Source: a virus
Virus record (IMG/VR): IMGVR_UViG_2785510761_000001
Strand: one strand, 5' to 3'
DNA length: 64,000 nucleotides
Shown here: positions 6,507-33,345 of the stretch, piece after piece
How the letters are laid out: every line of letters starts with the position of its first letter
Numbering within the stretch: the stretch's first letter is position 1
Translations under genes and position numbers: made by a program
The notes under the pieces: generated by a model
What the model saw: only the letters and a program-made list of their open reading frames with translations
Told to the model about the DNA's origin: nothing
The model's database searches: none

Positions 6507-7703
6507 TTACGACCGCCTGCGCGCCTGCTCTCCAAGTTCCCGGTCGAGCAGCTCGCGCAGCCCACGCGTCTCGCGGATCTCTCCCAGGTCTTTCGACGCC
6601 TCAACGATCTCGTCGTGCGCCGCCTGCGCGTCGAGGCAGTACCCGCGGTCTGCGAGCATGCCGAGCTGCGGGAAGCGGTCTCGGGAGCGGCCATGCACCG
6701 CGAACGACGCTGCCTCTCGTGCGTCCTGCCGCAGACGGTCATCAAACGTGGTGGCTCCGCCCGCACCAGGGAAAAAGCCAGCGTTGATGTTCTTCCGGAT
6801 GTCCGTGTAGAAGTACGGGCTGCCATACGTGCCAGCGTCGGACTCGTTCACCCATTCGGTGAGCTTCGACTTCTCGTACAGCACATCACCAGCCATGGCT
6901 TCATTCACGTGGGTCTCTCCGCGCAGCTCGGCAGTGATGTCCATGCTGAGCACGTTGCCCTCGATGTGTGTGATGTCGGCGCCGTACCGCTCACTGATGG
7001 CGTCGCGAAGGTACAGCTCGCCGCGGTCGAACTGCTCTTGGGTGAGTCCGCCACCGGACACGGGATCTTCGACGAGTGAGGCGTACGCGTAGGCAGTGCC
7101 ACCAGCGGGGGAGCCGGAAACGCCAACTTCGTGCACCCTGAGGCTGTCAAAGCCGATCTCACGGCCGTCCCAGGTGAGGCTGCTCTCGTCCCCGTCGATA
7201 GGTTCGGCATCGATGTCCCACTGGTCGCTACGGATGTCAGCGAATGGGTCCTCAATCTCGACCCGCGTGTTCGGTGTGACCGTGGCTCCGGCCGAGTCGC
7301 CGATCGCCAGTGTGATGGAGCCGTCAGGGTTTCGGATCGTGCCAGTCACCTCGCCGGACACTCCGTTGATCTGTGCGGTGTCACCCACCTGCACGAACGC
7401 CGCTACCGTGTCCACAGTACCTCCGACACCGTTCACGGAGTACAGATTGGGCATTTCGCCCTGCAACTCCATGTCGCCATCACAGCTCAGGCACACCGGA
7501 GCTCCGACCTCATGCAGGTCAGTAGCCGGAACTGTTTCCTGGGTGCCGCAGCCACCACACGACCATGTAGTTGTTACTCCCGACGCGGTGTCAGATTGAG
7601 GGGGAGAGGTGCTGCTCCGGTCATGTGCCGCAAAACTTCCGCCGCTACCGCCTGCTGCTGTCTTCCCGAGGCCTTGATCCTGACGTCGCGTGATGTTGCT
7701 CAT
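6507..7703 (-). CDS. Hypothetical acidic protein with shared N-terminal tag and CxxC pair
   Basis: MSNITRRQDQGLGKTAAGGSGGSFAAHDR; CGGC...CLSC. Confidence 0.8.
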   Translation of the reverse strand: MSNITRRQDQGLGKTAAGGSGGSFAAHDRSSTSPPQSDTASGVTTTWSCGGCGTQETVPATDLHEVGAPVCLSCDGDMELQGEMPNLYSVNGVGGTVDTVAAFVQVGDTAQINGVSGEVTGTIRNPDGSITLAIGDSAGATVTPNTRVEIEDPFADIRSDQWDIDAEPIDGDESSLTWDGREIGFDSLRVHEVGVSGSPAGGTAYAYASLVEDPVSGGGLTQEQFDRGELYLRDAISERYGADITHIEGNVLSMDITAELRGETHVNEAMAGDVLYEKSKLTEWVNESDAGTYGSPYFYTDIRKNINAGFFPGAGGATTFDDRLRQDAREAASFAVHGRSRDRFPQLGMLADRGYCLDAQAAHDEIVEASKDLGEIRETRGLRELLDRELGEQARRRS

Positions 7704-7743
7704 GCACTCATTACGAGCGGCCGAGCTCGGGGGTTACATGCGC

Positions 7744-8637
7744 TCAGAGACCCAGGTGCCGATTCTGTCGCTCCAGCCACATCTGCCGCTCGTCGCTGCC
7801 CCATTCGCTCCACGCGAGAGGTCGCTTCACTCCGGACTCAGCGATTCTCCGCGTCATCTCGACGCGAGAGACGATCTCGCTCAGGTGACGGTCGGCTGTT
7901 GCGACATCCCCGCGGGACGTTGCTGACTCGAGGCCTTCCAAGCCCCATGCGACGAGACGGTTATCTTCGGCCTCTTCACGAAGCATCTGCAGGTTCACGT
8001 ACTGAAGGCGACCGCTGGCCCGCAGCGCATCGAGCGCGAGCTCTTCAGGGGCGCTGGCCGGCGTGACCAACACTTGGGGTTCGTCGTACTCCTGCTCTTC
8101 CGCGGCATAGATCGGGGTTCTGTTATCGACTGTGCGTTCGGGCATCGGCGGCCGGAACTCGTACCTGCCGGCGCAGCTATCACACATTGCCATGGTCTTC
8201 TGCTGGGGCACCCAGTACACCTTACGTCCGGTGCCGTCAGCGATCGCTTCGCTGCATCTCACGCACTTCCTGCGCTTATGGGCAGGAGCGCCACGATCCT
8301 CGAGCTGGGTGTGAAGACGGTCATGGTCGAACACCAGCTTGCAGATCTCGTCCGGCTCACCAGATGCTTTCCAGTAGGCCGCACTGGTTGTGGCCGCCCC
8401 AGGGATCGAACCCTTGGGGGATTCAAGCGCTTCGCGGTACCCAGGGATCACCTCAGCGAGGTGGAGGCGGGCAGCGTCCACCTGGGACGCGTCAGGGCTG
8501 CTGCTGGAATATCCGATGATCGTACGCTGCGCCGGCGGGGCACCGGCATCTCTGCTGTGAGCGGCGAAGCTGCCGGAACTTCCGCCGTTCGCCGTCGCGC
8601 CGAGGCCAAGGTTCTTGCGTCTCGTGTTGTTGCTCAT
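7744..8637 (-). CDS. Hypothetical protein with shared N-terminal tag and CxxC pair
   Basis: MSNNTRRKNLGLGATANGGSSGSFAAHSR; CVRC...CDSC. Confidence 0.8.
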   Translation of the reverse strand: MSNNTRRKNLGLGATANGGSSGSFAAHSRDAGAPPAQRTIIGYSSSSPDASQVDAARLHLAEVIPGYREALESPKGSIPGAATTSAAYWKASGEPDEICKLVFDHDRLHTQLEDRGAPAHKRRKCVRCSEAIADGTGRKVYWVPQQKTMAMCDSCAGRYEFRPPMPERTVDNRTPIYAAEEQEYDEPQVLVTPASAPEELALDALRASGRLQYVNLQMLREEAEDNRLVAWGLEGLESATSRGDVATADRHLSEIVSRVEMTRRIAESGVKRPLAWSEWGSDERQMWLERQNRHLGL

Positions 8638-9578
8638 GCTTTGATTATGGACGGCTGCAGAGCGACTGCATGCGCAAGCGCGATTCCGATGTGCTCGGCA
8701 AGCTTCGGGGGTACGGCGTTCCCCACCATCTGTTCGGCGTTCGTGCGACTACCGACAAACATGAACCCTGGTGGGAACGTCTGTATCGCGGCACGCTCTT
8801 TCAAGGTGAGTGCTCTGACTTCCGACGGGGCCGAGGCGTCGCCCGGATGCTGCTGGTAGGCCGGAGGCATCGGGCGGTTCACTCCACGGATAGTCGGACT
8901 CGGTTCGTCGATTGAGAAGATTGCACGTCGTGCGTACGAGCGTGGATGCCGGTAGTACGCCTCGACCCCCAGTGATTCTCCTAAGGCTTCCCGAACGGTC
9001 ATTGGGCGTGATGCAGCGCTGTCACGGATCAGCTGGAAGATCTGCTCAGTGAGAGAACGATCTTGGGTGCCGATGGTGACGAGGCGCTTCCGGGATTGAG
9101 GAGCGCCATACAGTGACGCATCGAGCACCGCCATCTGCACACGGTATCCGGCACCTTCCATGACGGACACGGCAGACTTGAACGCCGCAGCGTGCCGGGC
9201 TCGCGCCACATTCTCCATCACGAAAAGTGGTGGACGGAACCTACTGATGATCGCAGCGAACTTCTCAGTGAGGTCTGCGCGGGCTCCTTCGACCCGGTGC
9301 CCGGCGGATGAGAAGTCCTGGCATGGAGGCCCGCCGACGACGATGGGGAACTCACGTCCGCCGAGCTCATACTGCTCAAGTTCCAGGAAGGTAGCTTCAA
9401 GATCACCGAGGTCAAGAAGGTTCGCATCATGGCCCAAATTCTGCGTGTATGTATCAACCGCACAGGGCCAGGAATCGTAGCCGCGGAGCACTGTGAAACC
9501 CGCAGCTTGCAGGCCAAGACTCATCCCGCCGCATCCAGAAAACAGGTCAATAACGGGCGGCAGCGATTCTGTGTGCAT
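8634..9578 (-). CDS. dcm: DNA (cytosine-5)-methyltransferase, orphan
   Basis: DLFSGCGG, GGPPCQDFS, ENV, QSRKR, GNAVPP motifs; leaderless start MHTES 8 nt after motif at 9587-9595. Confidence 0.92.
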   Translation of the reverse strand: MHTESLPPVIDLFSGCGGMSLGLQAAGFTVLRGYDSWPCAVDTYTQNLGHDANLLDLGDLEATFLELEQYELGGREFPIVVGGPPCQDFSSAGHRVEGARADLTEKFAAIISRFRPPLFVMENVARARHAAAFKSAVSVMEGAGYRVQMAVLDASLYGAPQSRKRLVTIGTQDRSLTEQIFQLIRDSAASRPMTVREALGESLGVEAYYRHPRSYARRAIFSIDEPSPTIRGVNRPMPPAYQQHPGDASAPSEVRALTLKERAAIQTFPPGFMFVGSRTNAEQMVGNAVPPKLAEHIGIALAHAVALQPSIIKA

Positions 9579-9716
9579 CGCATCTGAATGCGCGGCGCCA
9601 CCCAAAATCAGCCCGTGTCAGATGCGGCGTAGCGGCAAAACCCCGTATGTGATCGGGGTGAGTCAACCTCCTCGGGGGTTCGCTCCCCAGGGCAGACACA
9701 TGAGAAGGGCCATCAG

Positions 9717-10013
9717 ATGGCGAACAGTAAAATCGTCTCCTACGGAGAAATCGAGAGCGCGGCTTCACAGCTCGGAGCAGGTCGCGAGGAGATCACCTCC
9801 AAGCTCACGAACATACAAGCGGAGATCGGCAGCCTCGTCAGCTCCGGCTACGTGACCGATCAGGCTTCGGCTAAGTTCAACGAGGCATACAACCGCTACA
9901 CTCAGTCCGCGAACTCGCTCATCGCCCATCTGAGCGAGATTCAGTCGTTCCTCACGCAGACCGCCAACGCGATGCGTGACATGGGCGCGCCGATCGCGTC
10001 TCGAGACATCTAA
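9717..10013 (+). CDS. WXG100/ESAT-6 family type VII secretion substrate
   Basis: 98-aa helical hairpin protein, VSYGEIESAASQL...SGYVTDQAS.KFNEAY...FLTQTANAMRD; RBS GAAGGG. Confidence 0.85.
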   Translation: MANSKIVSYGEIESAASQLGAGREEITSKLTNIQAEIGSLVSSGYVTDQASAKFNEAYNRYTQSANSLIAHLSEIQSFLTQTANAMRDMGAPIASRDI

Positions 10014-10201
10014 CCTCTCTGCACAGGAACCAGGAAGGCAGGCATCCTCGCGTCTCTGTCACCGCCCACTGGCTCACCTCGGCGATAGGCAACGCGAAAG
10101 GCAGTACTTCCTCAGACGCAATGTCGCCTCACGCAGAACAGTCAGCCTCTCGACTCGGTCGACTTGCTGCCTGTTCTGCGTGAGGCCCACGATCGAGGTG
10201 A

Positions 10202-10443
10202 TCAGTCATCCTCATTTGGGCTGCACCGTGGGTAGCTCTGCTCGTGCGCATCCCACCCTTCGGGGTCGGCGTACCAGCGAGTTGAGTCGTGCTCACTCCA
10301 CAGATGGCGGGGGTTGACGCTCGAATTCATGTAGTTGTCGCAGCAGTTGTAGGCGTTGTCTCCGCCGGAGCGGTCGGGCGGCCCATCGGATCTCCGTGAT
10401 CCGGGCACAGTGCTGGTGTCCAGCATGTTTGAGAGCAAGCCAT
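10202..10443 (-). pseudogene. Small Cys/His-rich protein split by an apparent 1-nt frameshift
   Basis: TGATG-coupled start MACSQTCWTP..CPDHG continues in another frame as NAYNCCDNYM..RHLWSEHDSTRWY; adding one C in the run at 10382-10384 joins them. Confidence 0.4.
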
Positions 10444-11141: not shown

Positions 11142-11176
11142 GCTTCCCTCTCGTGAGCCGCACTGTGCGCCTCCAG

Positions 11177-11650
11177 CTAGGGAATGCGCGGCTGGAGTGC
11201 GTCGGGGAGGTCGTTGAGCGTGGCCTTTGGCATCCGGCTGAACGCCTCTGGCCACTGCCATGCGAGCCGAACGATTGCCGGAAGCACCGGAACGTCGTAG
11301 TAACGTTCCCTCGGCTCTTCGCTTGAGTAGAGGAGGGTCGCAATCTCCTGAGGGTCATCGGTCAGGTGAAACCCGCGCACATAGCCATCCGGGGCCGATC
11401 TCCACTTGCTGAGGTTCGGGCGCCCTTCAACATCCAGCGGATACCCGGCGTGAGTTTCTACGAACACGTGATCCCAACACCACTCCTCAAGCACCAGGCC
11501 CGGTTCGTCCTCTGGCCAGTACGCCGCAAACACCATCCGGAAGCCGAACATCCGATGAAGTGCTAGCGCGAGCACCCAGCAGTCGCCGTACAGGAACGCC
11601 TGACGTTCAACTTCGATGTCGCTCTGGCGAGTGCTCACCGTCGACATCAT
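11177..11650 (-). CDS. Hypothetical protein (GDCWVLALALH ... H motif)
   Basis: ATGA overlap with the ligase gene; 157 aa. Confidence 0.7.
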   Translation of the reverse strand: MMSTVSTRQSDIEVERQAFLYGDCWVLALALHRMFGFRMVFAAYWPEDEPGLVLEEWCWDHVFVETHAGYPLDVEGRPNLSKWRSAPDGYVRGFHLTDDPQEIATLLYSSEEPRERYYDVPVLPAIVRLAWQWPEAFSRMPKATLNDLPDALQPRIP

Positions 11651-13953
11651 GACCGCATGCTCTCTTCCCCATGTGCTTCGAACACGCGCGCGAGGTCAAG
11701 GCGGGGGCTTCCGTCTACCCCATCCACCGTAAACTCACCAAGGGTGATACGATCCCACACGCCGGTGGATCGCAAGTCGGCTTCCAGTCCTGAATGCCGC
11801 TGACCCAGCGTGTCCGCAGCGCCGCACCAGAACCGCTCGAGAACCCCGCGTGTTGCCTTGCGCTCAGCGTACAGGTTCGCCTTCAACTTGCTTCGGTACC
11901 CACTCGCGTCCACCAGCACGACACCCTCGTCCGACCGCCCAAGCGCGTCATCGAGAGCGTCAACAATCTCTTCGGGGGAGTGCAGGATTCGTTCGGCATC
12001 CGCGACCCCGAATCCGAAGCGTCGGGAGATGCCCCGCCGGATGCTCTCGTCCGTCTCGAACTTCACCACGTTGCGGATGCAGTCCAGTAGCACGAGCCTG
12101 TCACCGCCCGGCTCCGCGATCGGGTGAGTGTCGCGTGCTGCGATCACCTCGAATACGGCGGTCGTGTTTGTGCGCGAAAGCATGCCCGCGAGCGCGGCGG
12201 CGTTCATCACGTCACCCAGGTGGTTCACGAGCATCTGCTCTGCGAACTTCGAGTACGGGGTGATCCCGGACTTCGAGAACACCACGAGTTTGCCGCCTAC
12301 ACTGGCCACCAGCGCCAAGTACCCGTTGTACTTCTTGCGCACCTCGACCGGATATGCCGTGGTCAAGCGGTTCAACCAGTGCTCATGAGACCGGCCTGGG
12401 TCTTCACCGACGTGGAAGAATTTCTCGTACCCACGCGCCGCGATCTTCCCAGTTGCCTCGTTGATGAACAGACCGCGGGCGTGGACGGTCAGATCATCCC
12501 ACGAGCCCTTCCGGAACGCCTCACGGGTGAAGTTACAGGCCACAATGTCAGTGAGGCCCAATACTGGCTTCACCTTCACATGCTCTGACTCCCGCATGTG
12601 CGTGAGCAGATCAGTAGCGTCGGTCGGATCGAGGTTCTTCCTGACCCAAGGCCTCATGCGGTTGCGCGCAGCGGTGGAGGCGTCGACACGGTCGTTGAAG
12701 TGGTGGACAGAGTAATGCCCACTTGCGCTGAGCTCAGCAACGCTCACGCTGCCGCCAGCAGATGCCCCTGACTCCAGGCAGATGATGGGGTCACCATGCA
12801 CGTCATACGAGACCGTGTCGACAGGGCGGTCCTCCGGCTGGCTGTTGCGGTGGCCATGCAGCTGCCATCCAGCCAGCGGCATGTCTGCCACGTTGTAGCT
12901 GGTCTTGCCTCGGTACGTCTTCCCGCGGGTGCTTAGACCGTAGACACACTCGGCCTCAGCGATGTGTTCGGTCATCCCGTCCATGATCTTCTGACGCGTT
13001 CCCGCGCCCACGCCGCCATGCGTGACCAGCCAGTCTTCCCCTCCGATGTGCACCACCAGGTATGGCTGCGTGGCATCCACGAACGCGTTCTGCTCGCCGG
13101 CCATCACTCCGGCGCCGAGCAGCTTGTTACGAGTATCACGAGTGTCGGTGTGCCGGGATGTGGTGGTGTGATTGTTCACAGCGCGTAGGTGCTGCTCATG
13201 GTTGCCGGTAATGACAGTGCCACGACCCTCCGCCAACATCTTCTGGACGGTATTCCATACACCAACCGGGTCTGGGCCGCGGTCAAACAGGTCACCAGCG
13301 AACACCCAGTGCGGACGGTCGTCACCGTCGAACTCATCGACTATCCGGTCAAGTGCGTCGGAGCACGAATGCACGTCCCCGACGACGATTACGCGCCCCT
13401 GCGAAGTAAATTCTGGCACGCTGGTTGCGATGGCGATGCGCTGCTGAACAAAGGAAAGATCTGCAGTGCCGTCGATCACGCCGACGACATTTGGACTCAC
13501 CGGCTTCTGGGCGCAGCGCTCGTACATGCTCTCTAGTTCATCGGTATCGATGCGACTCGTACCTCGACCAGAGTTTCTGATCATCAGCTCGTCCAGCGTG
13601 ATTTCCCCCTGGCAGTCGATCAACCACGTTCGGTAGCCGTACTCCTTGGCGAGATTGATGATGTCGTTCTGATACTTCACCTGGGAGCTTGTCGCATCGA
13701 AGAATACGGTTGTCCCCGCTGCGAGTCGGGCCCTGAGTGCGGCGAGGGTTGCGGTTCTCGCAGCGAACTCCGCTTCATCGTTCAGTCGCAGTGTCTCGCC
13801 GAGAGATCCGTCCTTCTCGACGCATGGGAAAGCTACCGAGAACAGCTCACGAAACTGGTCGTACCCAACTGTCAGGTGTTCTACCTGAAGTGCTCGGATA
13901 AGTGAAGTCTTCCCGGTGCCGGGAGCTCCGCTAAGCAGAAACAGCGAACGCAT
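11647..13953 (-). CDS. Polynucleotide kinase / metallophosphoesterase / RNA ligase fusion (PNKP-Rnl RNA-repair type)
   Basis: GAPGTGKT P-loop; GDVHS, GDLFDRG, GNHE, THGG, HGH phosphoesterase motifs; ARGLF, YEKFF, KYNG, FEVI, EGVV ligase motifs. Confidence 0.88.
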   Translation of the reverse strand: MRSLFLLSGAPGTGKTSLIRALQVEHLTVGYDQFRELFSVAFPCVEKDGSLGETLRLNDEAEFAARTATLAALRARLAAGTTVFFDATSSQVKYQNDIINLAKEYGYRTWLIDCQGEITLDELMIRNSGRGTSRIDTDELESMYERCAQKPVSPNVVGVIDGTADLSFVQQRIAIATSVPEFTSQGRVIVVGDVHSCSDALDRIVDEFDGDDRPHWVFAGDLFDRGPDPVGVWNTVQKMLAEGRGTVITGNHEQHLRAVNNHTTTSRHTDTRDTRNKLLGAGVMAGEQNAFVDATQPYLVVHIGGEDWLVTHGGVGAGTRQKIMDGMTEHIAEAECVYGLSTRGKTYRGKTSYNVADMPLAGWQLHGHRNSQPEDRPVDTVSYDVHGDPIICLESGASAGGSVSVAELSASGHYSVHHFNDRVDASTAARNRMRPWVRKNLDPTDATDLLTHMRESEHVKVKPVLGLTDIVACNFTREAFRKGSWDDLTVHARGLFINEATGKIAARGYEKFFHVGEDPGRSHEHWLNRLTTAYPVEVRKKYNGYLALVASVGGKLVVFSKSGITPYSKFAEQMLVNHLGDVMNAAALAGMLSRTNTTAVFEVIAARDTHPIAEPGGDRLVLLDCIRNVVKFETDESIRRGISRRFGFGVADAERILHSPEEIVDALDDALGRSDEGVVLVDASGYRSKLKANLYAERKATRGVLERFWCGAADTLGQRHSGLEADLRSTGVWDRITLGEFTVDGVDGSPRLDLARVFEAHGEESMRS

Positions 13954-14008
13954 GGTGTGTCCTTTCAATGGCGCATCATGCGCCGACACACTGGCAATGC
14001 GCGGCCGT

Positions 14009-14347
14009 TCACCGCCCGAATTCGACAGCCAGGTGGGTGAGCATCGCCTCCGCGGCCTCCCACTCCTCCTGGCTGAGGGCGGGATGGTCAACATCGTGCA
14101 CAGGGACGATCAAGCTGCACACAACAGCGCGGGCGTGAGCGGATGGAATTTCCGCCAGGCGGTCTGCGCCGTCGGTGAGAGTCTCGATCAGGCGTTCGGC
14201 CGCAGTGAACTGTTCGGCAGTCCAGCAATACACTCCGCCGGCGTGAACATCGTCGACCTGTGCGAGAAGTGCGTTATGAATAACGAGTCGGTCGGCAGCG
14301 CTAAGCGCCGTCGGTTCGGCGAGCCCCGGAATCGTCAACGAACCCAT
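14009..14347 (-). CDS. Hypothetical protein
   Basis: 112-aa ORF overlapping the stop of the upstream gene. Confidence 0.6.
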   Translation of the reverse strand: MGSLTIPGLAEPTALSAADRLVIHNALLAQVDDVHAGGVYCWTAEQFTAAERLIETLTDGADRLAEIPSAHARAVVCSLIVPVHDVDHPALSQEEWEAAEAMLTHLAVEFGR

Positions 14348-15135: not shown

Positions 15136-15464
15136 GTTGCGCCAGGCAGGTCGGATGCTGCGCGAACGAGCTCGTCTCCGTGTTCCGCACTTAGCAGTGC
15201 TTCCGCTTCAGCGCGCGTATCTCGGCCGCGGATGCTGCCGTCTGTGTATCGCACGCCCCAGCGATAATCGTCATCGGCGCGGACGGTTCGACCGAGGATG
15301 ATCAGTTCGACCGACTCAGGGTCGTCGGCACGCTGAGCTGAGAGGTCCAGCAGGTCGGAAGCGAGCTCAACCAGCGCGCGGTCGTACTCGGGGCTCTCTC
15401 CACTGCACGAAGCCAACAGCCGTGCAGTTTCGATGATCGCTTCTGTGCTCAGCGTGACGCTCAT
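15117..15464 (-). CDS. Hypothetical protein
   Basis: RBS GAGGG, motif at 15510-15518. Confidence 0.7.
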   Translation of the reverse strand: MSVTLSTEAIIETARLLASCSGESPEYDRALVELASDLLDLSAQRADDPESVELIILGRTVRADDDYRWGVRYTDGSIRGRDTRAEAEALLSAEHGDELVRAASDLPGATWEVVR

Positions 15465-15539
15465 GATGCCCTCTCACTGACGGGAACCGCTCCCGCCATC
15501 TGATCAGGTAATGCGCGGGCAAAGTTCCCACACTCAAGC

Positions 15540-21387: not shown

Positions 21388-21450
21388 GATGCCCTTTCGT
21401 TATTGCGACCCTCGCGACTTCTCAGTGGCAATGCGCGGTACGCTGAGCCC

Positions 21451-23218: not shown

Positions 23219-23930
23219 CAGATACCTCGGCCTTCAGCTGGTCTGATGTCCAGATGCAATGGCCGGCCTTGTGCTCTGAGGTTCGGATGCAGCGCATGCC
23301 GTCCCCGTGCACGTCATCCCGTCGGTTGCTGCACTTCTGCCCACCCCTGAGCGGAGGTGGAACACGTCGCGGGTTCGTCACGGCGCTGGATCCGATCTCG
23401 AGCCCCTCAAGTTGTCCGTCAGGCTTCGTGAACAGAAACATCAGGCCGAGTGCTTCGAAGCTGGGGTGCAGTCCAACACTGCAGAACTGCGCACCGTAGC
23501 GGGCGGTTTCAATCAGCCAGTTCTCCCCGGGCTGGGGGAGGGTGAATAGCGGGGTCTGCTCGCCGGCCTGGTCTGCACCTTCAGCACGCAAGAAGTAGCT
23601 GTTCGTCTTCCAGTCGAAGCTTGCAACGCCATCGACTCCCCACCTGGCGAATGGCTGCTGTTCGAATCTTTCGCCAAGACCACCTTCGTTCTGATTTGCA
23701 ATGAAGCTGGTGAGCTCATTTCGTTCAGGGCCAGTGAGATCGCGTGAAGCGACGACTCTGACCATGCCTTCAACCTCTGAGGTAAGCTTCCATCTGATGA
23801 GGATGACCACATCGCGAAGCTCGTCGCTCAGCTGCTCAGTCATGTCGTCGCTGCTCAGGAATCTCTGTGCGTCGTGGATATCGTTTACCGGGCAGCTCAG
23901 ACTGAATCCGGTTTCGTAGGTTGATGCCAT
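23211..23930 (-). CDS. Hypothetical protein
   Basis: RBS GGAGG, motif at 23963-23971 with a DnaA-box-like TGTGGATAA nearby (23948-23956). Confidence 0.7.
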   Translation of the reverse strand: MASTYETGFSLSCPVNDIHDAQRFLSSDDMTEQLSDELRDVVILIRWKLTSEVEGMVRVVASRDLTGPERNELTSFIANQNEGGLGERFEQQPFARWGVDGVASFDWKTNSYFLRAEGADQAGEQTPLFTLPQPGENWLIETARYGAQFCSVGLHPSFEALGLMFLFTKPDGQLEGLEIGSSAVTNPRRVPPPLRGGQKCSNRRDDVHGDGMRCIRTSEHKAGHCIWTSDQLKAEVSDV

Positions 23931-24148
23931 CGTGCCTCCAGGCTCTCTGTGGATAACGCTCGAATGCGCGGCACCCATGGGCCTCAACGGTCAGTGAACC
24001 GGCCCAGGTAGCGGGGAGATTGCTGTGAGTGCTTGCGCTGGCCTGAGCGGGTGAGGGGCGAGTGAGGTCGTTCGACAAGATGTGGACACGTGCCATACCG
24101 CTACAAGTCACGCCGCTATTTATCGTCGTTCGAGGGCAAGTTCCGGAG

Positions 24149-24164
24149 TCGAACATATCTTCGA
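24149..24164. promoter_or_regulatory. LexA (SOS) box-like palindrome
   Basis: TCGAACATATCTTCGA, one mismatch to the actinobacterial TCGAAC-N4-GTTCGA consensus; further half-sites to 24190. Confidence 0.45.
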
Positions 24165-24209
24165 ACATGGATGTTCGAATTATGTTTGCGAGGAGTGATC
24201 GAGCAATCA

Positions 24210-24510
24210 GTTTTGCCCGGGTTTGGGCGTGTTTTGCCCGGGTTGCTCACCCGTTTACTCGGGCTACTTCCCTTACGGGAGTAAGGTTCTCCCGGTTTGC
24301 ACGGTTTTTCTGGAAATCTGCCTCCCCTATAGACAGTGAGTAACTGTTTCACCGGTTTTGAGTTTCTGCATCTATCTATCTATTTCTCTATTAAGAGATA
24401 AATAGATATAAGCCCGAGTAAACCGGGAGAGCACTACTCCCGTAAGGGATGCAGCCCGAGCACGAACCCGGTTTTGCCCGGGCAAGGCCGAGTAAAACCG
24501 GGCAAACGGC
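24210..24510. repeat. Candidate replication origin: 43-bp inverted repeats around an AT-rich core plus 12-bp iterons
   Basis: IR 24256-24298 / 24420-24462 (37/43 identical); AT-rich core 24370-24410; GTTTTGCCCGGG at 24210, 24231, 24471. Confidence 0.6.
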
Positions 24511-25204
24511 GAAACCATGCCATTTTCGAGGCTCATGCCCCGGTCGCCGGCCCGACGAGGGTACTTGCGCGCAAACAGTCCTCCCGCAGCCGATCTCAAG
24601 CGCCGGCGTAGAGGCGCCCCGAAAACGGGTGCGGGGCCGGGAAACGAGCGTCCAGGGCCGTTTCCGGCCGCGTTCAGCTCCTATTGGCGCCCCGAGGACG
24701 TGCAGCGCTCCTGAAATCGGTTGAATCGTGGTCGATATGCACGCGCGCCTACGCGCGTACGCGGGCGCGCGCCCGACCAGGGGAAACGCTCGCAATTGGA
24801 CGCTGGAGAGTTATTGGGCTCAGTCAAACAAAGGTAATACATAGCCTAGTTTCGAGCTCAGTCATTCGTGCCATTCGAACTCGTGGGTTGCTGACCCTCA
24901 CAAAACCACGATTCAGGTCATTATCAGGGTCGGCACGGTAGGCTCAGTCGAGCGTTCCCGAGCCTACCGTGATTCCACGCCTGTCGAGAAATCCATGCCC
25001 ATGAGATCACGGACCAACGAGATATTCGCCAGGAGCTCGTTTCCCTCGATCAACTGGTCAGCCCTCAGAGTATCGGCCATTCGCCCGCCGTCTCCAAGCT
25101 TTCTCCTAAGCAGCTTCCGGTGACTGAATCCCCTTGAAAGAGCAGGGCGGCATGAGCGCGGCACCGGACGATCGCGGGTCGTTTCGCGCTCAATTCTCAG
25201 CTTG

Positions 25205-26550: not shown

Positions 26551-26594
26551 CGCGCCGCCTCCTCAGGTGTGTTGATGTGGAGGCAATGCGCGGC

Positions 26595-27965
26595 CTACGG
26601 GGAGGGAGGCGGGGAGGATGGTCGCTGATGAGTGGTGAAACTCCCACCGTTTCCGCCCGCAGCTGTCTTGTCTAAGCCGCGGTCTTTTCGACGATCCTGT
26701 CCATTGCTGACGCGAGAGATCGGAATATGGGTGGAGGCTCGATCCGATCGTTCAGGGAGACCAGCAGCGCGTTCGGCAGTGCGGAGCAGCAACTCCATTT
26801 CCCTCGGGTGAGTTTGAGCCATTTTAGTGCGAGCCAGGGTCTCTTCCACGTGATCCAAGAATTTTAAGTTCACGTCCTGCACGATCCCGAGCACCCGATC
26901 TACATCCAGCGAGGACTTCCTGCTCAGCCTGACCCAATCGCCTGCCGCCACCCCTTTTGCGTAGCGCTGGTTTCCGACTCGCATTCCGAGCTTCTGTTCG
27001 TATCCGGGCATCAGGGCGATTGGAACTGTGTCGTAAATCGGGGAGAGCGTTACACCGTCTTCTTGGTGCATCAGCGTGTAATTCTTCGCGTGTGCGTCAG
27101 CGTTCCCGATGGTGATGTTGAATGCCAGCTGCTCAATGAAGTCATAGCGGACGTTCTCATCGACCCCGTACTTTCGAAGGAGCCCAATGGTTCGCTGTGC
27201 GCCCACGACGTACTTCTCTTCGGGAGAGAAACCCAGTGCCTGCGCAACGTCCTCCGTGTGCAACCGCACCACAGCCCCGCCGTCGGTCTCCGCCCGATCA
27301 AACCTCTTGGTCATGAAGGCAGTCTGCCCATGGAAGACAGCGACCCGGGATTCTGCAGCGCTGATGCCCATGCGCTGCGCAAGATCGAGAGACGCTGCTT
27401 CAACCTCATCCAGGCCGGGGTGGTCAGTTCGTGCAGGCTTCACAATATGGGTAGAAGGTGTGGCGGCATCTGGCCAAAAGCATTCACCGCGGTCAATTGT
27501 CAGTGCGAATTTCCCTTGAGCTCCCGCCAGTGAGAATCTTGGTGGGGCACTGAAATCACCGAGGCCCGAGCCTCCTCGCTTAATCTCCGTGATCCTGGCG
27601 CTAATTTCCGATTCCTGAGCGAGCTCGGTGAAGTCTTCCCCGCGACCCGGTTGAGTCTCCTGGGTCGTCAGCAGTACACCGCCGGGGAGGTCGGCGTTGG
27701 CTGCGCTGAGCAGATCCCACGATTCGGTGCTGCGTGCGTGAGTCAGTTCACGCATGTTCTCTTTCGCTCCGGGATCCTCAGGGATGAGGCCGTCGAGGAA
27801 GTTTTGCGGGGACTTCTTCGTGAGCGGGCCGTCGTAAGGCAGCGACAGTGACAGGTGTCGCCTAGAGCCCTGGTCATACACGAAGGTTGCTCGGTGTGCT
27901 GGTGAGACTTTCTCGAACACACCAACGTGCTCATCGCCGATCCACGCGTGTAGATACTCAGGCAT
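26595..27965 (-). CDS. hipA: HipA-family Ser/Thr kinase toxin with C-terminal copy of the shared tag
   Basis: LSLSLP and FLDGLIPE (N-terminal couple domain), SLAGAQGK, HIVKP, KRFDR, GNADAHAKNY, LSPIYD. Confidence 0.9.
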   Translation of the reverse strand: MPEYLHAWIGDEHVGVFEKVSPAHRATFVYDQGSRRHLSLSLPYDGPLTKKSPQNFLDGLIPEDPGAKENMRELTHARSTESWDLLSAANADLPGGVLLTTQETQPGRGEDFTELAQESEISARITEIKRGGSGLGDFSAPPRFSLAGAQGKFALTIDRGECFWPDAATPSTHIVKPARTDHPGLDEVEAASLDLAQRMGISAAESRVAVFHGQTAFMTKRFDRAETDGGAVVRLHTEDVAQALGFSPEEKYVVGAQRTIGLLRKYGVDENVRYDFIEQLAFNITIGNADAHAKNYTLMHQEDGVTLSPIYDTVPIALMPGYEQKLGMRVGNQRYAKGVAAGDWVRLSRKSSLDVDRVLGIVQDVNLKFLDHVEETLARTKMAQTHPREMELLLRTAERAAGLPERSDRASTHIPISRVSNGQDRRKDRGLDKTAAGGNGGSFTTHQRPSSPPPSP

Positions 27966-28590
27966 GAGCACTCCTTTCAGTACGAACGTGAACTGCAGGG
28001 ATGCGTAGTGTCTTCACGATCCGTGCGACGTCGCGGTTACCGCGGGGGGAGTAGCCGGTGCGCTCGATCGTGTGTATCACAGAGGTTGGAACATCCGTAC
28101 GTTCGGCCAGCTCGCCGGCGGACACGCCTCGGATAGCTCGCCAATCGGAAATGCGGCCACGAACACTATCCGGGGAGTCCAGAACCCACATCCCCATGTG
28201 CTTCTGAGCATCACGCACCTGCTGGTCGAACCCGCGTAGAGCGGCCCTTACAACTGCGGCGCCACCTCTACCTTCCGGAGCGGATCCGGCCCACCAGTCT
28301 CGCAACAGGGCCACAGGGTCTGGCGAGTCGATGAACTCTCGAATGCGAGCTGCCGCTCGAGCTTTACGCACCCCAGTGATCCCATCGAATGTCTTATGAT
28401 TCATCCATCGAAGCACATCGGAGCGTGACTGCTCAGACAACCGGCGACGGGAACGGCGAACGATGAAGGCTGTTTCATCCACCTCCCACACCCCGGACAC
28501 TTTTCTCGCGGGGATGCGCCCCTCTCGAGCAAGCCTGGCTGCGCGTTGGACAGTGATTCCCTCTGATCGTGCAAACTCAGAAATCTTCAT
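27958..28590 (-). CDS. Double-HTH protein (excisionase-like N-terminus, Xre-like C-terminus); probable HipA antitoxin/regulator
   Basis: MKISEFARSEGITVQRAARLAREGRIPARK; RAIRGVSAGELAERTDVPTSVIHTIERTG; directly upstream of hipA. Confidence 0.7.
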   Translation of the reverse strand: MKISEFARSEGITVQRAARLAREGRIPARKVSGVWEVDETAFIVRRSRRRLSEQSRSDVLRWMNHKTFDGITGVRKARAAARIREFIDSPDPVALLRDWWAGSAPEGRGGAAVVRAALRGFDQQVRDAQKHMGMWVLDSPDSVRGRISDWRAIRGVSAGELAERTDVPTSVIHTIERTGYSPRGNRDVARIVKTLRIPAVHVRTERSAHA

Positions 28591-28705
28591 AACACAAGCG
28601 TTTCACGCTGGCCTAAGAAACACAAGTGTTATGGGGCGCGAGGTGCCGTGCGTTGCCCATAGGGCGGGGGAGTGGTAGGTGTTCTGAACGCACTCTTACC
28701 TCTGG

Positions 28706-29812
28706 TCAGCAGATACTGATCGGTGATCCAGCGGGCCGCGGCGCCATGCGCGGAAACGCTTTCGAAGTGGCGAGTGCCTCCACAAGCATCTGGACGTTGA
28801 GTGCGTATAGGCCAGCGTTCAGCAGACTGTTGAGCTCGACGACGAGCGGGACATCGTTTGAGCCCAGCGCAACATCGAGCACATAGCTCCTGTTCTCCGG
28901 CTCCTCCTCCCGCACCTTGCGCGCGACCATGCGTCCGAACTCCACCAGACGCTCCACCACATCAGGCCGTTCGACGATGGCATGTCTCTGGTCGCGCACA
29001 CGCTGCACGCGTGGGTCGAATTGAAGCCCTGTGCTGTTGAGTGGCGTGAAGTCCACGATGCACCCCGCGCCTACAGCGACTTCATGATCCACCACGAACA
29101 AGCGGTACTCGTAGTGCATGGGCACCGCGCTCTGCACGAGGTAGGCATCACGGGTAGCTGCGAAGTGGTACGTCAGCCATTCTCCGCCATCGCCGAAGCA
29201 GTTGTCGAACGCTTCCCACAGCTCGGCGTCACTGAGGCTTGCGATCTGGTGGATGTACCCGATGCCCGCGGTCTTATCCTTGGCGACAATTTTGACGGCG
29301 GCACTGTCGCCGGCGGCCCGGAGCGCTTCGACCACGTCGGCGCGGTCGATTGGCCCACCGTCTCCCTGCTCTAGGGCTGAGCAGAGTCTTACAAACCGTC
29401 CAGCGTGATCCTTGAACGCAGTCAAGCGGGAGTACCCCTGACGGTTCACGTAACTCGCCATCTCAGGTTCAGGGTCGGTGGTGGGGATAGGTCCCCATAT
29501 GTGCGCACCAGCCAGGTCACTGAGCAGGCGATCCTCACCGGTGCCCACGTTCACTGCGCGCTCATTGTTCCAGCCGCCATATTTCGGTTGGCCGAGCTGC
29601 CGCACCCAGAGCCGTTCGCGCGGCCAGCAGGCGAATGCTTTCTCCATGCGCAGCGCATCTTCCACGAACAGGTCGAAGTCGTCTGTGCCTTCTTCCCGAA
29701 CGTTGGGTACCCACTGCTTGACGAGGGAGATGAGCCTGTCGAGCTCCGGCGTGCGTTCCGCAAAGATCGGGATGGGGTGGCCTGAGCTCACCACGAGATG
29801 GTTTTCGTACAT
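28706..29812 (-). CDS. ATP-grasp domain protein (R2K-like)
   Basis: YLVQSAVPMHYEYRLFVV, YVLDVAL, VVELNS..AGLY. Confidence 0.6.
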   Translation of the reverse strand: MYENHLVVSSGHPIPIFAERTPELDRLISLVKQWVPNVREEGTDDFDLFVEDALRMEKAFACWPRERLWVRQLGQPKYGGWNNERAVNVGTGEDRLLSDLAGAHIWGPIPTTDPEPEMASYVNRQGYSRLTAFKDHAGRFVRLCSALEQGDGGPIDRADVVEALRAAGDSAAVKIVAKDKTAGIGYIHQIASLSDAELWEAFDNCFGDGGEWLTYHFAATRDAYLVQSAVPMHYEYRLFVVDHEVAVGAGCIVDFTPLNSTGLQFDPRVQRVRDQRHAIVERPDVVERLVEFGRMVARKVREEEPENRSYVLDVALGSNDVPLVVELNSLLNAGLYALNVQMLVEALATSKAFPRMAPRPAGSPISIC

Positions 29813-29832
29813 GACGCTCCAAGGTCTGTCGG

Positions 29833-30426
29833 TCAGTTGACGGCTGGTCCCAAGTAGGTGCAGCGGTTCGCCTGCACAGTCTCAAGCGCGCCAGAGCGGG
29901 CGTGCTGCACATGCACCTGGCGTGCCCGACGATCGCTGGGAGGCGCATCGGAAATGATCAGCCAGGTGCCGCTCAGCCCCCTCACACGAACGGCCGCACC
30001 CGGAGTGAGGGTCCCGGACTTGTGCAGAGCAGCTTTGGTCGGCCGATGTGCTCGTGGCTTCCGAGCTTTCCGCCGATGCGTGCCAATGAACTGCTCCAGT
30101 GACTCCGCGCTGCTGTTGGTTTGGGAGGTAACGATCTGGTCTGCATCGCTCAGCAGGAACTTTGTGGGGATCGTCATGCTACTCGACGCGTACTCCAGGT
30201 CACTCTTATCGGTGAGCTGCGGCTCGGCGAGAGGAACGATGCGCGGGGGCCCCGCCAGCGGGCGCGTGTAGGTGGCGTTCGGGTCACGGGCGTAGCCCAG
30301 CATGTAGCCACGGTACTTTTCACCGTCATGCTTGATGACCGTCACGACCTGACCGTTGGCGAGGTTGCCGCGGCCGATGCATCCAGCGCCAGCAGTAAAC
30401 GAGCGCGATTCTTTTCGCAGCGACAT
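29833..30426 (-). CDS. Hypothetical basic protein
   Basis: Start MSLRKES after RBS GGAAGG; motif at 30469-30477. Confidence 0.6.
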   Translation of the reverse strand: MSLRKESRSFTAGAGCIGRGNLANGQVVTVIKHDGEKYRGYMLGYARDPNATYTRPLAGPPRIVPLAEPQLTDKSDLEYASSSMTIPTKFLLSDADQIVTSQTNSSAESLEQFIGTHRRKARKPRAHRPTKAALHKSGTLTPGAAVRVRGLSGTWLIISDAPPSDRRARQVHVQHARSGALETVQANRCTYLGPAVN

Positions 30427-30479
30427 GAGCAGCCTTCCTGAGCCGGTGTCTCCGGGTTCCAGGGTGTAAATGCGCGGCA

Positions 30480-31223
30480 CTACCCGTTGAAATCAGGATT
30501 CCTGTCGTAGGTGATGAGGCGTTGTGACTGAGGCTTCGAACGGCAGTCGCCTCGAGTGCAGATGTAGCTGCGTGTGCGGGGCATCCCGTCACGGTAGCTG
30601 GTGTGGGACTGATCGTTTGGGCATGTGCCACGGTATCTACGCATGACGTGCACCGGTGCAGCCAGTTCAGCGGCCGTGCTCTGGTGGTTCATCCGAACCT
30701 CGACGTCACTCATGCCGTGCCGGTTCAGCAAGGTGCGGAACTTCTCCCGCCAGCCTTTACTGTGGCCGCTGTGCTTATCGTCAATGCCGTGCGCGACTTC
30801 ATGCAGGATGGTGTCCGCGATAGTACGTGGCTCTTTGGTGCGCAGCTGTGGGGCGCTGAGCTCGATGAGGTTCTCATTCAGCGATGGGTCGACTCGGCAG
30901 GTGACCTGCTTGTTCCAGGCCAAGGAGGTGTTGCTCTGCATCCACCTCCCGAAGGTGAGGGCCGTGCCAAATGGTGGGTGCCTTGCTTCGGGCGTGCAAC
31001 GGATGATCTCGATGGTCGCCTGTTCGATGACTTCCTTGCGCTGAGACCAAGGCGTGGCGAACCAGGATTCTGGGTCTGTGTCGAGAAGCCGGCTGAAATT
31101 CGGGGTGATCAGTACCGGCGCCGGGGGAGCTCCCGCCTCCCGGCTGTGGCTTGCGAAACTGCCACCTGATCCGCCTCCTGCGGTCTTTCCGAGTCCGAGG
31201 TCCTGTCTGCGGGAGCCAATCAT
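30480..31223 (-). CDS. SprT-like zinc metalloprotease with shared N-terminal tag
   Basis: TILHEVAHG..GHSKGWREKF; C-terminal Cys cluster; starts MIGSRRQDLGLGKT. Confidence 0.82.
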   Translation of the reverse strand: MIGSRRQDLGLGKTAGGGSGGSFASHSREAGAPPAPVLITPNFSRLLDTDPESWFATPWSQRKEVIEQATIEIIRCTPEARHPPFGTALTFGRWMQSNTSLAWNKQVTCRVDPSLNENLIELSAPQLRTKEPRTIADTILHEVAHGIDDKHSGHSKGWREKFRTLLNRHGMSDVEVRMNHQSTAAELAAPVHVMRRYRGTCPNDQSHTSYRDGMPRTRSYICTRGDCRSKPQSQRLITYDRNPDFNG

Positions 31224-31245
31224 GCTCACTATTACGGGCGGCACA

Positions 31246-31279
31246 CCAAAGCGGCCCGACATCAGCCGGGCCGCTTTGG
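31246..31279. terminator. Intrinsic terminator-like hairpin
   Basis: 13-bp arms CCAAAGCGGCCCG / CGGGCCGCTTTGG just after the stop at 31284. Confidence 0.75.
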
Positions 31280-31283
31280 TGGC

Positions 31284-32426
31284 TCAGAACTCGTCGTCCC
31301 TGAAGAAGAGCTCGCGAACTTTCCTGCTCAGCGCCGTATAGTCTTCCTCCACACTTTCCGTGAGCTGCGTAAAGTCTACGCGCTGGCGACCGTCATCGCC
31401 GTTATGGATCGCGTGCGGGGCGTGCTCCTGAATCCCGCGCTTGAGGCTGCTGAACGCCTCATGATGCACCTGATAGTCATCTCGCTGATCGTAAGGGATG
31501 TCGTGCGGCCTGGTGTATTCACCTATGCGCGCCGCTGCTTTCGGGTGAGACCACGGGCGGTCCTTCGCCACCGTGATCGGCTGCAGCGCCTCGATGCGCT
31601 GAATGGACTCGGTGTCGCCGCGGCCGCGCGCGGTTTTGAGGGCGTGCGTCTTCGCGGCCTCGAACTCGTCGAGTGTGAATACGTTGTCGGCGCGGATCAG
31701 GCCGCTGTCATCATCTGCCGCGGCGCGAACGGGCTTATTGTCGATCGAGAATCCAGTGCCTCCGTGATTTCCTCCCATGCCGTAGATGTTGACCATGTAC
31801 ACCGGCTCTTCGGTTTTCCGCCAGAGCTCACCGTCGACGACGAGGTACCCATCAACCTCCGCCTGCACCATGTCGCGCGCGCCGGCTTCGCTGTCGTTGC
31901 CCTCCCGCTGATAGGGCTGAGTGACATGGACGAGCTCACCGGTCTCGTAGTCACGCTCGAAACGTGTGAGACGTTCACGGATACGCTCCGGGGTAGCTTC
32001 CAGCCGGTCCGATTTGTTCGGGTACGGCGGCTCCATAGTCGTGTTCGTGTACGACCAGATGTCGCCGGCGACCATCGGCCGGTACAGCTCACCGTCATAG
32101 TGCCGGACCTCGAACTCCAAGTCTCCGGAGCCACCGATGAACTCGTGGAACGTGAATGCCTCGCCTGTGTCTTCGCGGCTGACGCTTCGCACTTCAGCGT
32201 CCATCTCAAAGGTGCGCTCCACGTCTCGAGGGTTGCGGTGACGTGGCGTAGGAAGCACATCACGCTCCGTCCAGCGAACCGTGAACGGCTCGCTGATCAC
32301 CACGTCTGGCGCCGCCGATGACGGGGGCGGTGCGGCCGCGCCGCGCTCATGGCTCGCGAAGCTTCCACCAGAGCCGCCTTTCGCGGTCTTGCCGAGGCCA
32401 AGGTCTTGTCTGCGTGTGCTGCTCAT
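31284..32426 (-). CDS. Hypothetical acidic protein with shared N-terminal tag
   Basis: MSSTRRQDLGLGKTAKGGSGGSFASHER. Confidence 0.82.
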   Translation of the reverse strand: MSSTRRQDLGLGKTAKGGSGGSFASHERGAAAPPPSSAAPDVVISEPFTVRWTERDVLPTPRHRNPRDVERTFEMDAEVRSVSREDTGEAFTFHEFIGGSGDLEFEVRHYDGELYRPMVAGDIWSYTNTTMEPPYPNKSDRLEATPERIRERLTRFERDYETGELVHVTQPYQREGNDSEAGARDMVQAEVDGYLVVDGELWRKTEEPVYMVNIYGMGGNHGGTGFSIDNKPVRAAADDDSGLIRADNVFTLDEFEAAKTHALKTARGRGDTESIQRIEALQPITVAKDRPWSHPKAAARIGEYTRPHDIPYDQRDDYQVHHEAFSSLKRGIQEHAPHAIHNGDDGRQRVDFTQLTESVEEDYTALSRKVRELFFRDDEF

Positions 32427-32456
32427 ACCGCGAATTACGTGCGGCGCGCGTTCACC

Positions 32457-32564
32457 TCACTCGATGGTCTCGGTGGCCCCTTCGTCAGTTTCCTCGACTG
32501 TCCAGTCCAGATCGAACTCGTCGCCGTGCTCGTCAGTTTCAACGTACTGTGTGATCTTCGACAT
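32457..32564 (-). CDS. 35-aa highly acidic peptide
   Basis: MSKITQYVETDEHGDEFDLDWTVEETDEGATETIE; starts 4 nt after the SprT stop. Confidence 0.45.
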   Translation of the reverse strand: MSKITQYVETDEHGDEFDLDWTVEETDEGATETIE

Positions 32565-32568
32565 GTGG

Positions 32569-33345
32569 CTATCCAATGTATTGAGGGTTTCGGGCGTAGC
32601 TGATGAGGCGTTCGGCCTGCGGGACGCCGCGGCAGGCGCCCTGCGTGCAAATGTACATACGGCTGCGCGGCATGCCGTCACGATAACTGATGTGGGTGGG
32701 ATCCCTCTGGCAGGTGCCGACGATCTTCCGCACCATGCGAGCGGCGTGCTCACGGTCGGTGTCCCAGTGAATCTGCTCTACTTTCCGTTCAGTCATCCCA
32801 TGCCGGTCGAGCAACATGCGGTGCTTTTTCGCCCACCGGTCTCCGTGCCCGCCGCCCCAGTCGTCGATGCCGTGCGCGACCTCGTGCAAGATGGTGTTCG
32901 CGATGGTCTGAGGCTCTCTCGTGCGTAACTGAGATGCGTTCATCTGAACAGTGTTTTCGTTCAACTCAGGCTGGGTCAGGTGCCTTCGTTTCGCATTCCG
33001 AGCCAGTGCGCTGCCCAGAGGCTTCCATTCACCGAAAGTGAGCGGTGTTCCGAAAGGCGTGTCCTGAGCTTCTGGGGTAGCGGCGATGATCTCTCGTGTC
33101 GCCCGCTCTACGATCTTCTTGCGCTCAGCCCATGGAGTGTTCATCCACTGCTCTGGGTCTGCCCTCATGATCTGCGCGAAGTTCGGAACCTGGCTCAAGT
33201 AGTTGGCATTCTGCAGCAGGTTTTCTTCAGTCTCAATGGCCGGGGGAGGCGCGGCCGCGGCCCTTCTGTGTGATGCGAAGCTCCCCCCAGAGCCCCCTCC
33301 GGCGGTCTTCCCGAGGCCGATGTCCTGTCGGCGGATATTAATCAT
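32569..33345 (-). CDS. SprT-like zinc metalloprotease paralog with shared N-terminal tag
   Basis: TILHEVAHG..GHGDRWAKK; starts MINIRRQDIGLGKT. Confidence 0.82.
   Translation of the reverse strand: MINIRRQDIGLGKTAGGGSGGSFASHRRAAAAPPPAIETEENLLQNANYLSQVPNFAQIMRADPEQWMNTPWAERKKIVERATREIIAATPEAQDTPFGTPLTFGEWKPLGSALARNAKRRHLTQPELNENTVQMNASQLRTREPQTIANTILHEVAHGIDDWGGGHGDRWAKKHRMLLDRHGMTERKVEQIHWDTDREHAARMVRKIVGTCQRDPTHISYRDGMPRSRMYICTQGACRGVPQAERLISYARNPQYIG

Follow-up and report, generated by a model that had tools for sequence, protein, structure and literature searches.

What could place one and the same short peptide at the ends of proteins that otherwise have nothing in common? The question arises from a stretch of 64,000 nucleotides of the IMG/VR virus record IMGVR_UViG_2785510761_000001 (here called the window), which is part of a contig of 450,962 bp. 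An initial annotation had described a tag of about 25 residues at one end of six proteins encoded in the window, and had proposed that it is a targeting or translocation signal. When the window is scanned in six frames with the regular expression RR[QK][DN]xGL[GD][KA]TAxGG[SN]xGSF[AT]xHxR, exactly six copies are retrieved, all on the minus strand, and 50 shuffles of the window yield no match. A hidden Markov model of the tag scores the six copies at 55 to 64 bits against 4 bits for the best other match in the window, so that the six terminal copies stand as described. Five of them begin at residue 5 or 6 of their open reading frame (ORF): RRQDQGLGKTAAGGSGGSFAAHDR with a Ser/Pro linker (7599-7688; residues 6-35 of ORF 6507-7703; 58 bits), RRKNLGLGATANGGSSGSFAAHSR (8533-8622; residues 6-35 of ORF 7744-8637; 55.5 bits), RRQDLGLGKTAGGGSGGSFASHSR (31122-31211; residues 5-34 of the SprT-like ORF 30480-31223; 60.6 bits), RRQDLGLGKTAKGGSGGSFASHER (32325-32414; residues 5-34 of ORF 31284-32426; 64 bits) and RRQDIGLGKTAGGGSGGSFASHRR (33244-33333; residues 5-34 of the SprT-like ORF 32569-33345; 61 bits). 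The sixth, RRKDRGLDKTAAGGNGGSFTTHQR (26604-26693; 55 bits), lies at the C-terminus of a HipA-family kinase, 32 residues before the stop, and is followed by PSSPPPSP and the stop codon.

In an alignment of the six tags 15 of the 30 columns are invariant, including the Pro-Pro that opens the linker, and a Pro-rich linker (A/S-P-P) directly follows every copy. After removal of the tag, a relation remains between the two SprT-like bodies only (53% identity over the body); for all other pairs none is detectable (all E > 0.3), as had been claimed. The copies differ at the DNA level mainly at synonymous sites. Pooled over 24 core codons, the Nei-Gojobori proportion of synonymous differences (pS) is 0.76, which is saturation, and that of nonsynonymous differences (pN) is 0.21; at a ratio of 0.27, neutral evolution of the tag is not seen. 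With synonymous sites at saturation and the peptide retained, the copies are old and it is the peptide, not the DNA, that is conserved. The tag is an old peptide under purifying selection, and not the product of a recent DNA duplication.

With regard to structure, an AlphaFold2 model of the 247-residue SprT-like protein, made from a five-sequence alignment, gives residues 1 to 39 a predicted local confidence (pLDDT) below 50 and no secondary structure, and the body is folded from residue 41 onwards. The segment that separates tag and body differs in length among SprT orthologues, from 0 to about 26 residues. The tag is predicted, on the basis of this model, to be an intrinsically disordered, modular terminal peptide with a flexible Pro-rich linker, which agrees with the flexible terminal signal that had been postulated. 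Since it is present on unrelated proteins, it is most economically read as a signal for targeting or docking.

The tag is not restricted to this locus. A search of 1.84 billion representative proteins with a 30-residue profile found the strict, Leucobacter-type form on 24 protein clusters, N-terminally in 22 and C-terminally in two, both of which are HipA proteins. The bodies that can be assigned to a family include those of SprT-like, DUF8359, DUF7007 and KTSC type; the majority belong to no Pfam family, and P0019 is HipA-like by eye only, with no Pfam match. Every named protein with the strict tag comes from one 163-kb contig of Leucobacter luti, of which about 60 kb were sampled; no fewer than 11 tagged genes lie there, and five of these form a tandem run. 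Within 21 kb of a 43-kb Logan contig (L008) the tag occurs on five genes, and L001, a contig of 23 kb related to the window, has kept four tagged genes. Among the GTDB species genomes the strict tag occurs in one 2.3-kb contig only, from an uncultured Leucobacter, and among the JGI metagenomes in one small contig only; it was not found in IMG/VR or in PLSDB. No Pfam or NCBIfam model covers it, and the literature that was searched on the motif and on actinobacterial translocation motifs does not describe it. In two Leucobacter-type contigs the gene for a bPH_2 protein, with a bacterial PH domain, comes directly after the tagged genes that stand in tandem (L006, 13928-14548; L008, 11141-11764).

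On what kind of element does the tag reside? The window encodes, at 49752-52607 on the plus strand, an ATPase of 951 residues with the Walker A motif GRPGSGKT, which serves as a marker of a megaplasmid family. Its homologues on megaplasmids of Curtobacterium, Arthrobacter and Glaciihabitans are 32-35% identical over 82% of the length, and those on Bifidobacterium megaplasmids, including pMP7017, are about 24% identical. Most of them are named by PGAP as type IV conjugative DNA transfer proteins. The plasmids in question measure 546-608 kb in Curtobacterium, 375-440 kb in Arthrobacter, Pseudarthrobacter and Paenarthrobacter, and 149 kb in Glaciihabitans. The ATPase has no Pfam match; it does have a weak match to the NCBIfam TraD model TIGR03743 (E 9e-6) at the Walker A region. 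As judged from these similarities, it appears to belong to the TraD/VirD4-like coupling-protein family, in agreement with the VirD4-like label that it had been given. Translationally coupled to it is a gene for a protein of 467 residues (52604-54007, plus strand). The label Replic_Relax, previously attached to this gene, was not confirmed, as neither this nor any other Pfam model matches its product. On the Curtobacterium and Arthrobacter plasmids a gene of 440-530 residues, likened to it by position and size, occupies the same place after the ATPase homologue, and a non-coding gap of 1.6-1.9 kb precedes the ATPase as it does in the window.

The window also contains phage-like genes, coding for a dNMP kinase (DNMK), a dCMP deaminase, a Pnkp-like kinase-phosphatase-ligase, an RNase H, an Hjc-like resolvase and NAMPT, and the ATPase has a weak match to a terminase PHROG. 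A reading of the element as a jumbo phage was nevertheless rejected: among 50,697 phage records there is no relative of the ATPase, which has clear relatives among megaplasmid coupling proteins, and no capsid gene was found on the related plasmids pS16 and that of Arthrobacter. As the ATPase has its kin on megaplasmids and none in phages, the window is assigned to a conjugative actinobacterial megaplasmid. One member of the family, pMP7017 of Bifidobacterium breve, is experimentally conjugative (PMC10832533).

Tags of a similar kind occur on the related plasmids. The tagged DUF8359 protein has homologues on Pseudomonas, Curtobacterium and Arthrobacter megaplasmids; the alignments begin only at residue 48-61 or so, and the window-type tag is not among what they share. 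The homologues on the Curtobacterium plasmid pS16 begin with a different but related peptide. When all candidate N-termini were compared within each of four whole plasmids, each relative was found to carry an N-terminal tag of its own. On pS16 about 38 ORFs are tagged, with the sub-types TGExGNKGEFGTHxR..D.ITL, ARxxARHGDGKFGEQHR....TL, DHPRxxxGKFTEKxH and GTPGGG[RQ]F..Q.R...DV.L. The Arthrobacter caoxuetaonis plasmid has 26 tagged ORFs, with the pattern M-x(2-12)-R-Q-P-x-G-[IV]-P-x-G-G-Q-[FY]-A-x3-H-x-E-x3-[VI]-x-L, and these N-terminal tags make up 26 of the 32 GGQ[FY] sites in its ORFs of at least 90 residues. At least eight ORFs of the Glaciihabitans plasmid begin with (D/L)HPRxxxGKFxDKxQSxPExxL, and at least five of pMP7017 with KSAQAKRQLRxxxGxFAxExK..LPS. 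Roughly 3-6% of the proteins of each plasmid are tagged. Common to all versions is R-x(2-10)-G-x-F-[AGT]-x(1-3)-[HQKE], that is, a basic residue, a Gly/Pro-rich stretch and G-x-F. If the Leucobacter tag and one pS16 sub-type are aligned on the Phe, they share T(-9), G(-5), N(-4), G(-2), F, H(+3) and R(+5); the pS16 tags are too divergent to be matched by the strict Leucobacter profile.

The lineage-specific tags keep to the same elements. A 40-residue query of the Arthrobacter type, run with tblastn against the 72,556 plasmids of PLSDB, finds five records with 16 to more than 40 places each, and the records coincide exactly with the five Micrococcaceae plasmids of PLSDB in which a homologue of the ATPase is present; the expectation that tag and coupling-protein family occur together is thereby borne out. 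The DHPR type is found in PLSDB only on three Curtobacterium plasmids and one Pseudarthrobacter megaplasmid. Neither type has a convincing tblastn match among phages, so that the suggestion of HPRxxxGKF-type motifs in phage proteins was not borne out. The tag is confined to these megaplasmid elements, divergent between lineages and tightly conserved within each. Judged by sequence, the tag of the window would be the form proper to the Leucobacter lineage, within a tag family that characterizes a single family of conjugative actinobacterial megaplasmids as a hallmark. With four other plasmid lineages carrying looser forms, and 24 clusters in related elements the strict one, the peptide clearly extends beyond the locus in which it was noticed.

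Which machine might read such a tag? In an all-against-all comparison of four complete plasmids (pS16 and those of Arthrobacter, Glaciihabitans and Bifidobacterium, the last being pMP7017), the genes common to all four are the coupling ATPase, a giant FtsK-like ATPase, an FtsK-like ATPase of 617 residues, a HipA and an RNA ligase. Three of them (pS16, the Arthrobacter plasmid and pMP7017) also have a clear VirB4-like ATPase of the AAA_10 type, with about 840-890 residues, and the sole AAA_10 signal of the Glaciihabitans plasmid is a weak match inside its giant FtsK-like protein. The drift of the tag between lineages speaks for a reader that is encoded by the element itself. As the ATPases of conjugation are the only conserved element-encoded machines that were found, and as type IV systems are able to move many plasmid proteins, the conjugative apparatus is ranked first. 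For an F plasmid at least 16 such proteins have been counted (PMC8406263, PMC11288057). Moreover, only about six of the 64 tagged proteins of pS16 and the Arthrobacter plasmid have a Pfam domain: DUF7007 (twice), NAD-dependent DNA ligase, CCA-adding enzyme with HD, HA, KTSC and LRV_2. The remaining 90% or so are in this respect effector-like, which fits delivery by conjugation.

The reading that we put first, tentatively and at somewhat less than an even chance, is therefore that the tag serves as a signal by which proteins are recruited to, or translocated by, the conjugative machinery of the plasmid. A terminal address tag would have been grafted onto many unrelated cytoplasmic proteins, mostly ORFans, and would be read by a plasmid-encoded machine, most likely an ATPase of the conjugative type IV apparatus (the coupling ATPase or a different one). 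The tagged set would then be brought to the mating channel and passed into the recipient along with the DNA, to act there before the plasmid genes are expressed. Such a set would comprise SprT/Spartan-like proteases, HipA kinases and DUF8359, DUF7007 and KTSC proteins, and in the relatives a DNA ligase and a CCA-adding enzyme as well. Slightly more tentative is the proposal in its widest form, a lineage-specific peptide address code, carried by roughly 3-6% of the proteome, by which dozens of mostly uncharacterized proteins are loaded into the mating channel. The giant FtsK/SpoIIIE-like proteins, of 1150-1735 residues, are a second candidate reader, which may be EccC-like or a DNA translocase. 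Those of 1150-1686 residues are encoded at 230760-235817 on pS16, 362989-367350 on the Arthrobacter plasmid, 132421-136947 on the Glaciihabitans plasmid and 97865-101314 on pMP7017. In every lineage the giant gene lies near or adjoins that of the coupling ATPase.

Several points weigh against the conjugative signal. The type IV signals known so far lie at the C-terminus or internally and show little conservation (PMC11288057), whereas more than 95% of these tags are N-terminal across the lineages, and sharply conserved; N-terminal type IV signals are mentioned, with no specified sequence (PMC8406263, PMC11288057). The net charge of the tag, about +3 in Leucobacter and positive in Bifidobacterium, is not kept in Arthrobacter and Glaciihabitans, where it is about 0. 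On pS16 the tagged genes are spread round the plasmid and not limited to a single leading region, and the tags co-occur with the whole plasmid backbone, not specifically with the coupling ATPase. LigA and the CCA-adding enzyme, as housekeeping-type cargo, fit recruitment within the cell equally well. Finally, the coupling ATPase of the window has an extra C-terminal domain of about 170 residues (780-951), which has no relative in 5.8 billion proteins; being unique to this element, it cannot be a conserved receptor, and the idea that it co-evolves with the tag as such was rejected.

The main rival we consider rather unlikely, though by far the least so among the alternatives. The tag would be a docking motif for a shared hub of plasmid or host inside the cell, be it a scaffold, a chaperone, the plasmid DNA, the replisome or a compartment, and nothing would be exported. 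Short linear docking motifs typically have the make-up seen here, a disordered peptide in which an aromatic anchor (G-x-F) comes after a basic residue. LigA, the CCA-adding enzyme and SprT act on nucleic acid in the cell, and both the share of proteins that are tagged and the spread of their genes round the plasmid suit such a role. On the other hand, no candidate hub was found, the core that all lineages share consists mainly of translocation-type ATPases, HipA and RNA ligase, and the strong divergence of the tag is hard to reconcile with a conserved host factor.

Clearly less probable is that the tag limits the lifetime of the proteins or matures them, as a degron or processing site for Clp, Lon, the proteasome or a SprT-like protease of the plasmid. 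It is an exposed, disordered peptide that may stand at either end, two of the tagged proteins are proteases themselves, and it is found on the toxin kinase HipA. However, the Pfam tally of the 64 tagged Arthrobacter and Curtobacterium proteins includes no SprT, the core gene set of the family is without a protease, the conservation of 24 residues exceeds the typical size of a degron, and there is no obvious logic in placing one on a DNA ligase or a CCA-adding enzyme.

It is more improbable still that the peptide loads cargo into an encapsulin or another capsid-like shell, or acts as a phage capsid-targeting sequence. The layout, a short Gly-rich peptide with a Pro/Ala linker at either terminus, does resemble that of encapsulin cargo peptides and of the capsid-targeting sequence of phage T4, by which diverse enzymes are brought to one assembly; D-L-G-L-G-K in the tag is reminiscent of the encapsulin motif D-L-G-I-R-K, and the window has phage-like genes for nucleotide metabolism and RNA repair. 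Yet neither pS16 nor the Arthrobacter plasmid has a Linocin_M18 (PF04454) or HK97 capsid (PF05065) gene, the tag is absent from the phage collections (IMG/VR for the strict form, GenBank phages for any convincing match), and the weak terminase match of the ATPase is outweighed by its coupling-protein relatives. The encapsulin cargo peptide was rejected for want of a shell gene on those two plasmids.

Export through a type VII (ESX) or Tat system is close to excluded. The former had been offered as an alternative because of a putative orphan WXG100-like ORF at 9717, so labelled in the initial annotation, and the latter is brought to mind by the twin arginines with which the tag opens. But pS16 and the Arthrobacter plasmid, both rich in tags, have no WXG100 gene, and the Gly-rich, disordered peptide has neither WXG nor the helical YxxxD/E signal. 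Its RR is followed by D/N, K and Gly/Ser, with no hydrophobic h-region and no AxA site. The C-terminal copy in HipA and a cargo of nucleic-acid enzymes and kinases speak against both routes, and as their defining features are lacking both were rejected.

Conservation at the level of the nucleic acid, as a 5' cassette for leaderless translation or a regulatory RNA site, is close to refuted: N-tagged genes do have a promoter-like box 6-7 nt before the start in common, but synonymous divergence has reached saturation with the peptide retained, HipA proteins carry the tag C-terminally, and one tagged gene has no such box. The tag is independent of protein body, promoter and terminus, and this excludes an explanation by translation initiation or at the RNA level.

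The box itself deserves some attention. Upstream of every N-tagged gene of the window, GCCGCnCGTAAT is followed after 6-7 nt by ATG or GTG, for example at 31224-31243 (minus strand), and boxes of the same type lie at about 7704-7722, 8638-8655, 32427-32446 and 33346-33365. The spacing resembles a leaderless-type layout. The gene without the box, on contig L008, is translationally coupled to its neighbour. Directly upstream of nearly all tagged ORFs of pS16, CCGCGCACA is followed after 7-9 nt by ATG. On the Arthrobacter plasmid an in-frame upstream peptide, AAHxxGM or RTQxGM, is kept before the tagged ORFs at the peptide level. A start-proximal box that is kept across plasmid lineages would imply leaderless transcripts and an element-specific transcription signal. 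The terms "N-terminal" and "promoter motif" do not occur in the pMP7017 transcriptome paper.

How does the tag compare with known systems? With the type IV signals, such as the Arg-rich C-terminal tail of Agrobacterium VirE2 and VirF and those of F, RP4 and pKM101, it has in common that unstructured terminal peptides mark unrelated proteins of a conjugative element; the net positive charge is present in the Leucobacter-lineage tag and is not kept in all lineages. It differs from these signals, which are without a sharp consensus, in having about 9-15 invariant residues and lineage versions, and with five of the six window copies and 22 of the 24 clusters N-terminal it is not a signal of the extreme C-terminus. 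In type VI (MIX, FIX and RIX) and type VIIb (LXG) secretion a conserved N-terminal module marks polymorphic, unrelated cargo for one machine. These markers are folded domains or longer motifs and are tied to genes of the respective secretion system, whereas the present tag is a disordered peptide of 25 residues on a conjugative plasmid, where no such genes were detected. ArdC-type antirestriction and polyvalent proteins contain SprT/Wss1-type metalloprotease and anti-defence-like modules and are thought to enter the recipient with the DNA. Their activities are fused in one giant polypeptide, whereas here each small protein has its own copy of the tag. The tag thus fails the testable defining features of the type IV, type VI/VIIb and encapsulin/T4 signals, which are conceptually its closest counterparts.

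The signals by which conjugative type IV systems translocate proteins are notoriously ill-defined, and very little is known of them in Gram-positive or actinobacterial systems. If the conjugative reading is true, the tag would be the first signal with a sharply defined consensus in any Gram-positive type IV system, and it would reveal a plasmid effectorome, from Bifidobacterium to Arthrobacter, that reaches the recipient ahead of gene expression. With a consensus of 25 residues, the cargo of such a system could be listed from sequence alone, and the tag might become a portable handle for protein delivery between bacteria. It would also provide a catalogue of about 100 uncharacterized proteins, probably with roles in establishment or anti-defence. 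There is a substantial chance that the tag marks a previously unseen plasmid effector set. Because pMP7017 is conjugative in experiments and tractable, the idea can be tested now. Even if the reader is something other than the mating apparatus, a tag on some 3-6% of the proteins of a replicon would point to an unrecognized organizing principle of megaplasmids.

The tagged proteins of the window differ in how far they can be assigned. The product of 6507-7703 (minus strand; 398 residues) has a Cys-rich, zinc-ribbon-like stretch and belongs to no Pfam, PHROG or NCBIfam family. That of 7744-8637 (minus strand; 297 residues; P0012) has a weak rubredoxin-like Cys4 stretch, and the start of its gene overlaps the end of a C5 DNA methylase gene (8634-9605). 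The two SprT-like zinc metalloproteases, of 247 (30480-31223) and 258 residues (32569-33345), both on the minus strand, have an invariant HEVAH motif and match PF10263 with E 2e-6 and 5e-5, the second just under the Pfam cut-off. The top Foldseek matches of the model are human SPRTN (6mdx and 6mdw; probability 0.99, with a weak E of 5e-3), which suggests that the predicted fold of the body is nearest to the SPRTN protease domain. Between these two genes lies that of the tagged DUF8359 (PF27633) protein of 380 residues (31284-32426, minus strand).

The HipA-family kinase (26595-27971, minus strand; 458 residues) is the only C-terminally tagged protein among the six. Both HipA domains, the N-terminal Couple_hipA and the kinase domain HipA_C, are present (PF07804, E 2e-45; PF13657, E 1e-9), and the gene upstream of it (27958-28590, minus strand) codes for an untagged HTH_31 protein, its HipB-like partner. 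The tag is likewise C-terminal in one further HipA (P0026), which is divergent and falls into another 50%-identity cluster. A HipA-family kinase is among only about six genes common to all lineages, and its place in the core suggests a backbone role rather than that of an ordinary accessory toxin-antitoxin pair. The homologues of the other four lineages (pS16, 156901-158175; Arthrobacter, 41177-42421; pMP7017, 92688-93926; Glaciihabitans, 23381-24694) have no tag. Tagging of HipA is restricted to the Leucobacter lineage, and C-terminal tagging was rejected as a trait of the whole family.

RNA repair is a recurrent theme of these plasmids, with a Pnkp-like kinase-phosphatase-RNA ligase in the window, an RNA ligase in the core of all four relatives and a tagged CCA-adding enzyme in Arthrobacter; genes of this kind are situated at 11647-14094 in the window, at 488678-489736 on pS16 and at 10017-11738 on contig L047. 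They may serve the megaplasmids against tRNA-cleaving defences. At 62393-63904 the window encodes a full-length NAMPT (phrog_448, E 1e-193). Nearly the whole stretch from 26595 to 33375 is present in 19 public sequencing runs; these belong to 11 studies and bear several organism labels, which makes the element either widespread or much re-sequenced.

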